DNA from: a virus
Taxonomy: Duplodnaviria > Heunggongvirae > Uroviricota > Caudoviricetes
Reading direction: 5' to 3' (one strand)
Length of the DNA stretch: 41,465 nt
IMG/VR virus record: IMGVR_UViG_2917881069_000006
The notes beneath the pieces were generated by a model, which worked only from the letters and a program-made list of their open reading frames with translations, was not told where the DNA came from and did not search any database. The translations under genes and the position numbers were made by a program. Positions within the stretch are counted from its first letter, which is position 1. The number at the start of each line of letters is the position of its first letter. Below, piece by piece: positions 9,940 through 23,402 of this stretch.

Positions 9940-10268
9940 CAGTTCACCACCTGTTTAAACTCTGCGCTGAACTCAACACGCAACATACTGACCCGCGACG
10001 TCCATTTTGCGCAGGTCACCTTTATCTGCCGCCAGTCATAAGGCGGCGTCCACAGAAAGGCTTTCCAGCCTCCGTGCTCTGCCAGAAACGATTCCAGCGC
10101 CGTGGCCTCCCAACGGGGGACAGAAATCGTCACGCTGTACGTTTTCAGGTTGGCATTCAGCCCGGCAGGCGCGCGCTGGGAGTAACCATCACCAAAGCGC
10201 ACCTCCCTGACGGAAGGAGCCGAAGCCACATCCATACCCGGTTTCACTTTCCAGCGGAAGGTTTTCAT
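9939..10268 (-). CDS. M: tail tip protein M
   Basis: 109 aa, same length and position as lambda M. Confidence 0.9.
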   Translation of the reverse strand: MKTFRWKVKPGMDVASAPSVREVRFGDGYSQRAPAGLNANLKTYSVTISVPRWEATALESFLAEHGGWKAFLWTPPYDWRQIKVTCAKWTSRVSMLRVEFSAEFKQVVN

Positions 10269-12826
10269 CGCCCACCTCCGGAGAACAGACCACCATCACG
10301 CATCTGCCCGGTCACGACATCCATTGCCGCCTTACGGGCTACGTCATAAACCGCCTTCAGCGCCTGTGGCCCTATCTGACCGTTCGTGCCGTCGTTATTA
10401 ATCACCACATGGTTATTCTGCTCAAACTTCCCGGACGCCTGCGACCGGCTGTCCGCCAGACTGCCCGGTGTACCGACATAACCACCGGTGGCATAGCCGC
10501 GCATCAGCCGGTAGAGATTCCCCACGCCAATCCGGCTGGTTGCCTCCTTCGTGAAGACAAATTCACCACGGTGAACAATCCCGGCAGGCTCATATTTGCC
10601 ACCGGTTCCCGTAAAACCTCCGGTCGCAAAATGGAATTTCGCCGCAGCAGCCTGAATGGCTGTACCGCCTGACGCTGATGCGCCGCCACCAACAGCTCCG
10701 CCAATGGCGCTGCCGATACTCCCGACAATCCCCACCGTTGCCTGCTTAAGCAGAATTTCTGTCATCATGGACAGCACGGAACGGGTGAAACTGCGCCAGT
10801 TCTGCTCACTGCCGGTCAGCATCGCCGCCATATTCTGCGCAATACCATCAAAGGTCTGCGTGGCAGCACTTTTAACCTGCGACATACTGTCCGTGGCACT
10901 CTCTTTCCACTCGCTCCAGCCGGACTTCAGGCCAGCCATCCAGCTCCCGTTAAGCTGGTCTTCAGCCGCCCAGGTCTTTTTTCTGCTCTGACATGACGTT
11001 ATTCAGCGCCAGCGAATTATCGCCATACTGTTCCTTCAGGCGCTGTTCTGTGGCTTCCCGCGCTGCCTGCCGGTCAGTAAGCCCCCGTTTTTCGCATCAA
11101 TGGCTGTCCGTTTTGCCCGTTGTTGCTGTGCGAACTTATCCGCCTGCTGCGCCAGCGCATTCAGGTGCTCCTGATACGTGACCTTATCGCCAAGTGCAGC
11201 CAGCTGGCGTTTGTACTCCAGCGTCTCATCTTTATGCGCCAGCAGGGATTTCTCCTGTGCGGACAGCTGGCGACGTTGTGCCGCCTCCTCCAGTACCGCG
11301 AACTGATTTTCCGCCTTCCATAAATCCCGGCGCTGCTGGCTGATTTTCTCATTCGCTCCGGCATGCTTCTCCAGCGTCCGGAGTTCTGCCTGAAGCGTCA
11401 GCAGGGCCGCATGAGCACTGTCTTCCTGACGATCGCCCGCAGACACCTTCACGCCGGACTGTTTCGGCTTTTTCAGCGTCGCTTCATAATCCTTTTTCGC
11501 CGCCGCCATCAGCGTGTTGTAATCTGCCTGCAGGATTTTCCCGTCTTTCAGTGCCTTGTTCAGTTCTTCCTGACGGGCGGTATATTTCTCCAGCGGCGTC
11601 TGCAGCCGTTCGTAAGCCTTCTGCGCCTCTTCGGTATATTTCAGCCGTGACGCTTCGGTATCGCTCTGCTGCTGCGCATTTTTGTCCTGTTGACTCTGCT
11701 GTTCAGCCTTCTTTCTGGCGGCTTCAAGCGCAAGACGGGCCTTTTCACGATCATCCCAGTAACGCGACCGCGCTTCATCGTTAACAAAATAATCATCCTT
11801 GCGCAGATTCCAGATGTCGTCTGCTTTCTTAAACGCAGCCTCTGCCTTAATCAGCATCTCCTGAGCGGTATCAGGACGACCAATATCCAGCACCGCATCC
11901 CACATGGATTTGAATGCCCGTGCTGTCCTGTCTGCCCAGGTTTCCAGCGTGCCCATGTTCTCTTTCAGGCGTCGGGTCTGGTCATCAAACCCTTTCGTTG
12001 CGGCCTCGTTCGCCGCCTGCAATGCCCCGGCTTCATCGCCGGAACGCTGCAACTGAGCAACATACGCAATCTGCTCCGCCGTCACGTTATGGAACTGGCG
12101 CGCCATCGCCGTCAGCCCCGACGTCGGGTCAGTGGTCAGCTTCCCGAAGGCTTCAGCAACCTTGTCCACCTCCACGCCGGATGCAGAGGAGAAACGCGCC
12201 ACACTCTGGCTGATGGACGCAATCTGAGCCTCACCGCTTACCCCCGCCTTAACCAGTGCACTGAGTGACTCGCTGGTCTGGTTAAACGTCAGCCCTGCCG
12301 CCTGCCCGGCTCTGGACAGGACCAGCATACGATCTGCCGTCAGACCTGACTGATGACCGGAAAGGACCAGCGTTTTGTTGAACTCAGACAGGGTTGAGTT
12401 GCCCTGATACCAGGCATACGCCAGCGCACCGGTCGCCACTGCCAGCGAGGTGGCCCCGACCATCGGCAGGGTGATCGCACCGGCAAGCCCCCTGAACATG
12501 GGGATCATCCCGCCGAAGGAGTCCTTAACCTGACCACCCTGTTGCAGCAGGATCAGCCACGGACTTTGCCCGCCTGCAAGCTGCGTGGCCACGTCGGTGA
12601 ACTGTGCAGGAAGCATACGCATGGCGGCTTTATACTGTCCGACGGAAATCCCCGCTTTCTGTGCAGCCAGCGCCTGCCGGTTCATCGACTGTTCAACGAC
12701 TGCCGCTGTTTTTTTCGCATCACTTTCCGTACCGGAAAAATGACGCCTGACTCTGGCCATCTGCTCGTCAAATCTGGCCGCATCCAGACTTAAATCAACG
12801 ACCAGATCGCCTACCGGTTCAGCCAT
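10265..12826 (-). pseudogene. H: tail tape measure protein H, reading frame interrupted by two compensating single-base indels
   Basis: Total span 2562 nt equals an 853-codon gene, but the frame from ATG 12826 hits TGA at 11036-11038. The middle frame is open only between two homopolymers (plus-strand C5T5 at 11082-11092 and T6 at 10977-10982) and reads RGLTDRQAAREATEQRLKEQYGDNSLALNNVMSEQ; the original frame resumes as KKTWAAEDQL...MAGLKSGW to the C-terminus. Confidence 0.75.
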
Positions 12827-18938: not shown

Positions 18939-22619
<3,681 letters not shown>

Positions 22620-22645
<26 letters not shown>

Positions 22646-23165
22646 TCAGCAACCCCGGTATCAGTTCATCCAGCGCGGCTGCTTTGTTCATGGCTTTGAT
22701 GATATCCCGTTTCAGGAAATCAACATGTCGGTTTTCCAGTTCCGGAAAACGCCGCTGCACCGACAGGGGGATCCCGTCGAGAATACTGGCAATTTCACCT
22801 GCGATCCGCGACAGCACGAAAGTACAGAATGCGGTTTCCACCACTTCAGCGGAGTCTCTGGCATTCTTCAGCTCCTGTGCGTCGGCCTGCGCACGCGTAA
22901 GTCGATGGCGTTCGTACTCAATAGTCCCTGGCTGCAGATCTGTCTCGCTGGCCTGCCGCAGTTCTTCAACCTCCCGGCGCAGCTTTTCGTTCTCAATTTC
23001 AGCATCCCTTTCGGCATACCATTTTATGGCGGCGGCAGGGTCATAAAGCACCTCATTACCCTTGCCGCCACCCCGCAGAACGGGCATTCCCTGCTCCTGC
23101 CAGTTCTGAATGGTACGGATACTCGCGCCGAAAATGTCAGCCAGCTGCTTTTTGTTGACTTCCAT
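22620..23165 (-). CDS. nu1: terminase small subunit Nu1
   Basis: 181 aa, MEVNKKQLADIFGASIRTIQNWQEQGMPVLRGGGKGNEVLYD..., winged-HTH N-terminus as in lambda Nu1. Confidence 0.95.
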
Positions 23166-23179
23166 TGTTCATTCCACGG

Positions 23180-23365
23180 ACAAAACAGAGAAAGGAAACG
23201 ACAGAGGCCAAAAAGCCCGTTTTCAGCACCTGTCGTTTCCTTTCTTTTCAGGGGGTGTTTTAAATAAAAACATTAAGTTACGGCGAAGAAGAACGGAAAC
23301 GCCTTAAACCGGAAAATTTTCATAAATAGCGAAAACCCGCGCGCCTTCCGCCCCGTAACGCTCCG
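23180..23365 (-). other. cos packaging site (cosB with cosN core near 23335-23360)
   Basis: Sequence upstream of nu1 closely resembles the lambda left end from memory (CGCGGGTTTTCGCTATTTATGAAAATTTTCCGGTTTAAGGCGTTTCCGTTCTTCTTCG on the minus strand); the cohesive-end core reads GGGCGGAAGGCG instead of the remembered GGGCGGCGACCT. Confidence 0.6.
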
Positions 23366-23402
23366 GATCACCGGAAAGGACCCGTAAGACAGAAGATCAG
23401 GT

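Follow-up and report, generated by a model that had tools for sequence, protein, structure and literature searches.

The conserved parts of cos in lambda-like phages are the CG pairs that flank cosN, the left half of cosN (bp 1-6) and cosQ (Feiss et al. 2015, PMC4669245). cosQ acts in packaging termination, and R3 of cosB is the critical binding site of Nu1 (the small subunit of terminase, TerS) and positions gpA (PMC4669245, PMC9026076). Differences at bp 7-12 are described as "common": the departures from lambda are at bp 9 and 12 in N15 and phiD326, and at bp 8, 9 and 11 in Gifsy-1 (PMC4669245). Many mutations of bp 7-12 have a minimal phenotype, while symmetric changes in the left half are severe; G2C reduces the yield tenfold and C11G is without effect (Xu & Feiss 1991, cited in PMC4669245). 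The asymmetry between left and right halves depends on the proximity of cosB (Hang, Catalano & Feiss 2001, cited in PMC4669245). The burst obtained with lambda gpA is the same for cosN-lambda as for cosN-N15, and a 2-bp mismatch between the ends (lambda/N15) is not lethal, although the viable yield falls about fourfold (PMC4669245). [quoted passage not shown]

cos site and terminase genes of the window

The window, i.e., the whole stretch of 41,465 nucleotides that was analysed (IMG/VR record IMGVR_UViG_2917881069_000006), is a lambdoid genome in prophage order, with an internal, uncut cos. Its gene order is: tail fibre, J, head genes, A, Nu1, cos, lysis genes, Q region, O, P, immunity region, bet and exo. 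Lambda-like phages, among them 2G7b and PhiR46_1, match about 81-86% of the first 25 kb at 95-96% identity. The window is opposite in direction to the lambda map, and all the features below lie on the minus strand. Base pairs are numbered from the inferred top-strand nick, and both nick positions were placed from the conserved spacing to cosQ and R3.

23377..23383, minus strand: cosQ (GGGTCCT), packaging-termination element, bp -29 to -23, same sequence and distance as in lambda/DE3
23340..23355, minus strand: cosN, 12 bp between the inferred nick sites plus a 5'-CG on each side, CG/GGGCGGAAGGCG/CG, from alignment to the annotated lambda cos
23353..23342, minus strand: 12-nt overhang, from alignment to lambda/DE3
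23348..23353, minus strand: conserved left half of the overhang, bp 1-6 (GGGCGG), from alignment to lambda
23342..23347, minus strand: variant hexamer, bp 7-12 (AAGGCG), from alignment to lambda
23288..23303, minus strand: R3 of cosB (GGCGTTTCCGTTCTTC), bp 51-66, same sequence and position as in lambda
23230..23245, minus strand: R2 of cosB (inverted R element), bp 109-124, same sequence and position as in lambda
23189..23204, minus strand: R1 of cosB, bp 150-165, same sequence and position as in lambda
22620..23165, minus strand: Nu1 (TerS), 181 aa, 177/181 identical to Nu1 of lambda/DE3
20720..22645, minus strand: A (terminase large subunit, TerL, the nicking enzyme), 641 aa, 636/641 identical to gpA of lambda/DE3 in an ungapped alignment

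On the minus strand, 23365..23330 reads CGTTACG GGGCGGAAGGCG CGCGGGTTTTCGCTATTTATG. The lambda sequence was taken from phage DE3, a lambda derivative whose record annotates a "cos site", and reads GGGCGGCGACCT at the same place. The overhang of the window thus begins with the same GGGCGG as that of lambda, and its bp 7-12 are AAGGCG versus CGACCT: five of these six bases differ (bp 7, 8, 9, 10 and 12) and C11 is kept. The first-pass annotation of this DNA had claimed that the cosN core departs from the canonical sequence while Nu1 and cosB are lambda-like. The alignment bears this out on each point, including the lambda cosN bases and the lambda-matching flanks that it quoted; the two 7-mers that it opposed, AAGGCGC and CGACCTC, correspond to bp 7-13, of which bp 13 (C) is common to both.

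The change is very local. Five of the six positions differ in bp 7-12, versus six substitutions and one 1-nt indel over the approximately 177 bp that separate bp 13 from the start of Nu1. Four substitutions lie in the I1 interval, where the IHF site is expected, and the 1-nt length difference falls in a run of T. R3, the inverted R2 and R1 are at the lambda distances from cosN, with the I1 interval between R3 and R2, i.e., cosB is of the complex type. Together with cosQ at the lambda spacing, the conserved CG/GGGCGG....../CG (23355..23340, minus strand) and the adjoining Nu1 and A genes of the lambda family, this makes a lambda-like cos. All the differences within cosN are in the right half, as in natural right-half variants; the left half, the flanking CG pairs and cosQ are unchanged. 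Two of the five symmetric base-pair positions of lambda, (3,10) and (6,7), are lost.

Outside cosN, (i) the run of T between R1 and the start of Nu1 (23166..23190, minus strand) has one base fewer than that of lambda/DE3 or of the E. coli SF-468 prophage, which puts the ATG of Nu1 at bp 189 and not at bp 190; this is the third homopolymer-length difference in the window; (ii) the cosQ-cosN spacer (23354..23376), to the left of the top-strand nick, contains GGAGCG in the window versus GACAGG in lambda. This spacer is a second small hypervariable patch, with at least 15 haplotypes over the loci, some of which bear both cosN alleles.

Comparison with named cos sites

The window shares with the lambda cos (i) cosQ, bp 1-6 and both flanking CG pairs, (ii) R3, R2 and R1, in sequence and in spacing, and (iii) the terminase subunits (Nu1 98%, gpA 99%). 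It differs from it at bp 7, 8, 9, 10 and 12, by a few substitutions in the cosQ-cosN spacer and in I1, and by the shorter run of T. The overhang common to lambda, 21, phi80 and 434 (GGGCGGCGACCT) is thus absent, with differences at 5 of 12 positions.

N15 and phiD326 (GGGCGGCGTCCG) likewise have a right-half variant with a conserved left half, and have G at bp 12 as in the window. Their allele is not that of the window: the N15 record begins with GGGCGGCGTCCG (GTCCG at bp 8-12) and departs from lambda by two changes (bp 9 and 12) instead of five. Moreover, N15 has a simple cosB and a TerL that is 65% identical, whereas the window has the cosB and the TerL of lambda. Gifsy-1 (bp 8, 9 and 11; PMC4669245) and mEp213/LLS (GGGCGGCGCGCT; bp 9 and 10; PMC12315714) are also natural right-half variants, with other bases and fewer changes than the window; these two alleles are given as published.

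Two deposited phage records carry exactly the 12-nt allele of the window together with a cosB and a Nu1 of the lambda type, i.e., PhiR46_1 (PV340565; propagation host ECOR13) and YDC107_1 (CP025712). PhiR46_1 matches 86% of positions 1-25000 of the window at 95% identity. Both differ from the window by the cosQ-cosN spacer (GCAGGC versus GAGCGT). YDC107_1 is in addition an N15-like plasmid prophage with a protelomerase and a lambda-type head and terminase module, and not an integrating lambdoid. The PhiR46_1 record is in prophage order and does not state the virion ends, and no public phage record begins at the variant end. The accession of PhiR46_1 falls within PV340536-PV340577, a run of lambda-related temperate phages which we take to be the panel of Brenes & Laub. 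That panel was used in plaque and efficiency-of-plating assays (PMC13190303, citing Brenes & Laub 2025). From the host field of the record and this use of the panel, PhiR46_1 presumably forms plaques.

A full-text literature search for GGGCGGAAGGCG and its reverse complement brought up no phage paper, the hits being unrelated work on plants and on Streptomyces; a reportedly dedicated survey of cosN (Vahanian et al. 2017, Virology 509:140) lay outside that search. No experiment on this exact allele was found, and the published natural or mutant cases change one to three of the six positions, not five.

Recurrence of the allele

The variant is a common and recurrent natural allele. Among 5,426 complete E. 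coli genomes, it was found at 166 places in 155 genomes (150 chromosomal and 16 plasmid places), compared with 7,405 places in 4,097 genomes for the canonical sequence; these counts were made with a 37-mer centred on the variant and with the canonical 37-mer. The exact variant is also present in 78 IMG/VR viral contigs, in 23 PLSDB plasmids (phage-plasmids) from E. coli, Shigella sonnei, E. albertii and E. fergusonii, and in the cryptic-clade Escherichia sp. E1V33 (scan of species representatives, 12 hits). In a sample gathered by similarity of Nu1, i.e., not chosen by the cos sequence, the variant is present at 11 of the 76 sites and the canonical 12-mer at the remaining 65. The allele is old and has a wide distribution.

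The variant is strongly enriched on plasmids. In the complete E. coli genomes, the plasmids have 16 variant and 19 canonical places, versus 150 and 7,386 on the chromosomes.

In the same set of genomes, in which the window itself is absent, the best match of the window is in SF-468 (84% of a 12-kb query at 98.2% identity). This closest chromosomal relative bears the same 12-mer within an integrated prophage whose cosQ-cosN spacer is quite unlike that of the window.

The plasmids that bear the variant are non-mobilizable, N15-like protelomerase phage-plasmids of approximately 46 kb with a packaging module of the lambda type. Several of the hits among species representatives are lambda DNA in non-enteric assemblies and are uninformative on the allele. 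Likewise, the canonical lambda cos with lambda flanks was met in assemblies of non-hosts, i.e., Raphidiopsis brookii D9, Aeromicrobium sp., Archangium violaceum and a plasmid of Alicyclobacillus fastidiosus; lambda or cosmid-vector DNA carried into these assemblies is the most likely origin.

Allelic series at bp 7-12

Rarer alleles were obtained by pattern scans of IMG/VR that left out the two main alleles. The states found at bp 7-12 between lambda-type flanks are the following.

CAGGCG: 4 IMG/VR contigs
CAGACG: 3 IMG/VR contigs
TGACCT: 2 IMG/VR contigs
AGACCT: 2 IMG/VR contigs
CTGACG: 1 IMG/VR contig
CGACCG: 1 IMG/VR contig
AAGGCT: 1 IMG/VR contig

In two other states, C11 is also changed.

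GAGCGT: 2 IMG/VR contigs
AAGCGT: 1 IMG/VR contig

AAGGCG is the second most common state, and CAGGCG and AAGGCT are each one step from it. The IMG/VR scans for C7/T12 with a base other than A at bp 9, and for G12 with a base other than C at bp 7 and other than G at bp 9, returned nothing. The left half is invariant in all the lambda-type cos sites gathered by pattern, which is not independent evidence since the patterns fixed those bases. In the Nu1-anchored sample, where the left half was left free, GGGCGG is present at 76 of 76 sites. Such a distribution is what would be expected of a hexamer (bp 7-12) that is under weak constraint and lies between fixed blocks.

An origin of the variant by local inversion was considered and rejected: AGGTCG, the reverse complement of CGACCT, matches AAGGCG at 4 of 6 positions, which has a probability of about 4% by chance (binomial estimate, uncorrected for the alternatives).

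Flanks, Nu1 and gpA at the variant loci

The variant is found on at least 15 different left-flank haplotypes, that of lambda itself among them, and adjoins at least five types of Nu1 (about 35, 53, 77, 83, 93 and 98-99% identity to lambda). Since its Nu1 partners are so diverse, the allele has persisted and moved among packaging-specificity types.

At loci with at least 2,850 nt of downstream sequence, an uninterrupted full-length gpA, 98-100% identical to that of lambda, is encoded at 36 of 43 variant loci versus 42 of 63 canonical ones. At one variant locus, the encoded gpA is the lambda protein without a single change. No gpA substitution separates the variant from the canonical class, and the most skewed ones (N9D, S21A and I459V) are found in both. 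As judged from these sequences, the nuclease gpA does not seem to have had to adapt to the allele.

It should be added that some canonical-overhang sites beside a Nu1 that is 98-99% identical to that of lambda have an altered right flank, a part thought to be conserved. Bp 13-14 are CT at loci L260, L270 and L288, i.e., the 3' flanking CG loses its G (bp 14, G to T). A changed right flank is also present at the canonical-overhang loci L239, L292-L294 and L296 (CGCGGTTTTTCAC).

Interpretation of the variant cosN

The best explanation is that the window has an ordinary, functional cos of the lambda type, in which the right half of cosN is present as a natural allele (AAGGCG for CGACCT); we give it a probability of roughly 0.88. 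The analysis shows the sequence, its recurrence, the contexts in which it occurs and that gpA does not co-vary with it, whereas the positions of the nicks and the competence for packaging are inferred from the conserved spacing and the published genetics of lambda. Nu1 would bind R3, R2 and R1, aided by the bend that IHF induces, and the bound Nu1 would anchor gpA at a fixed distance from R3. One gpA would then nick the top strand within the conserved CG^GGGC, between bp -1 and 1. The nick in the bottom strand would be made by the gpA anchored by cosB, between bp 12 and 13 and with little influence of the local sequence. The expected products are 12-nt 5' overhangs, GGGCGGAAGGCG and its complement. 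As both ends would come from the same duplex, they would be complementary and should cyclise as well as those of lambda. The predicted stability of the self-annealed ends is -18.6 kcal/mol for the variant and -19.0 kcal/mol for lambda, both with 10 G+C of 12. Normal packaging is the most likely outcome. Two limits have to be kept in mind: (i) the public occurrences are mostly in prophages, and a prophage can be maintained without being packaged; (ii) the window's own element may be defective on grounds that have nothing to do with cos (gene H), so that it is no testimony to the function of its cos.

The sole functional consequence that is predicted concerns the ends themselves, which would match canonical lambda ends at the first six bases only. 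In the heteroduplex between a variant and a lambda end, pairing extends over bp 1-6 only, with a predicted -9.5 kcal/mol. Cyclisation should therefore be poor in a chromosome with two unlike ends, and much worse than in the lambda/N15 case.

Other readings

The first-pass annotation had left three options for the altered core: a variant cos, a mutation that blocks packaging, or an artefact in the assembly of a cos junction. The variant cos is the one retained, the same 12-mer being present in hundreds of independent public sequences, on many flanks and beside intact terminase genes. An artefact from circularising or permuting a linear genome at the cos junction has a negligible probability. 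The accuracy of the bases may be imperfect, as homopolymers of the window differ in length from those of its relatives at three places, of which two are in H and one precedes Nu1. However, these do not affect the five changes in cosN, which are substitutions and not indels; the sequence is continuous and in prophage order on both sides of the site; and the allele is identical, base for base, to that of the integrated SF-468 prophage, where cos is never a physical end. The recurrence of the allele, including in this prophage of a complete chromosome, thus excludes a junction artefact for practical purposes. A lesion in a decaying prophage, after which cos would no longer be cut properly, would agree with the clustering of the five changes beside the bottom-strand nick site, with the loss of the symmetric positions (3,10) and (6,7), and with the interruption of gene H, which may be a sign of decay. 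This reading is nevertheless very improbable: the identical allele is found in hundreds of sequences from four Escherichia/Shigella species, with diversified flanks and several types of Nu1, and in deposited phages, i.e., it is too widespread and too diversified for a dead end, and an intact gpA is at least as frequent beside it as beside the canonical overhang. Moreover, bp 7-12 are naturally variable and nearly without phenotype when mutated, and lambda gpA is without specificity for cosN (PMC4669245). The claim that nicking depends on cosN, from which the three options were drawn, agrees with published work for the left half and the flanking CG pairs and not for the right half.

One further reading would add to the explanation by a natural allele rather than replace it. 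The hexamer might not be neutral and might define an incompatibility group of cohesive ends, i.e., a lineage partly isolated from canonical lambdoids, as its ends could not join canonical ends and chromosomes from hybrid concatemers, or recombinants with mixed cos sites, would fail to cyclise. The stability predicted for the heteroduplex over bp 1-6 (-9.5 versus about -19 kcal/mol) points in this direction, and so do the roughly fourfold loss of viable yield already caused by the 2-bp lambda/N15 mismatch (PMC4669245), the discreteness and fair frequency of the allele (11/76 of the closest Nu1 relatives) and its enrichment in phage-plasmids. On the other hand, the rare alleles with the same flanks fit drift in an unconstrained hexamer, and the enrichment could reflect a single successful lineage. 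The many flank and Nu1 backgrounds, some of them common to the canonical allele, make exchange around cosN evident. Such exchange is easy in the prophage state. This addition is thus unlikely, and quite unlikely is the stronger proposal that AAGGCG marks a second end-compatibility type in the lambda-like phages of Escherichia, kept because it blocks joining and cyclisation with the canonical type. If the latter were true, it would amount to partial reproductive isolation, clearest in the phage-plasmids, where the variant accounts for about half of the lambda-type cos sites.

Significance

With 5 of 6 positions changed, more than in any case found in the literature examined, the window is a further natural example of how the right half of cosN can change freely next to a left half, flanking CG pairs, cosQ and cosB that do not change. 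For annotators and for cos-finding tools, it calls for caution: a search for GGGCGGCGACCT misses about 2% of the lambda-type cos sites in complete E. coli genomes, about 14% of those in viral contigs that encode a close relative of Nu1 and about half of those in phage-plasmids. The prediction that variant ends will not anneal to lambda ends is relevant to the use of cosmids and of packaging in vitro, and the mismatch of the ends also bears on recombination between co-resident lambdoid prophages. The biological significance at large is little.

Other features of the prophage

The tail tape-measure gene H (10265..12826, minus strand) is interrupted, especially in 10940..11090. Two runs of A that lie approximately 105 nt apart are altered, by a 1-nt deletion in one and a 1-nt insertion in the other. 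As a result, about 35 codons are read in the wrong frame, which contains two stop codons, before the frame is restored. These indels are either homopolymer sequencing errors or the mark of a tail-defective prophage.

The lysis cassette (24404..25556 and 25778..26445) is of the phage 21/DLP12 type and not that of lambda. In the near-identical prophage of SF-468, this cassette is annotated as the essD holin, the rrrD lysozyme and a lysis protein. Genes similar to ynfU and to cspB (cold-shock) come after it.
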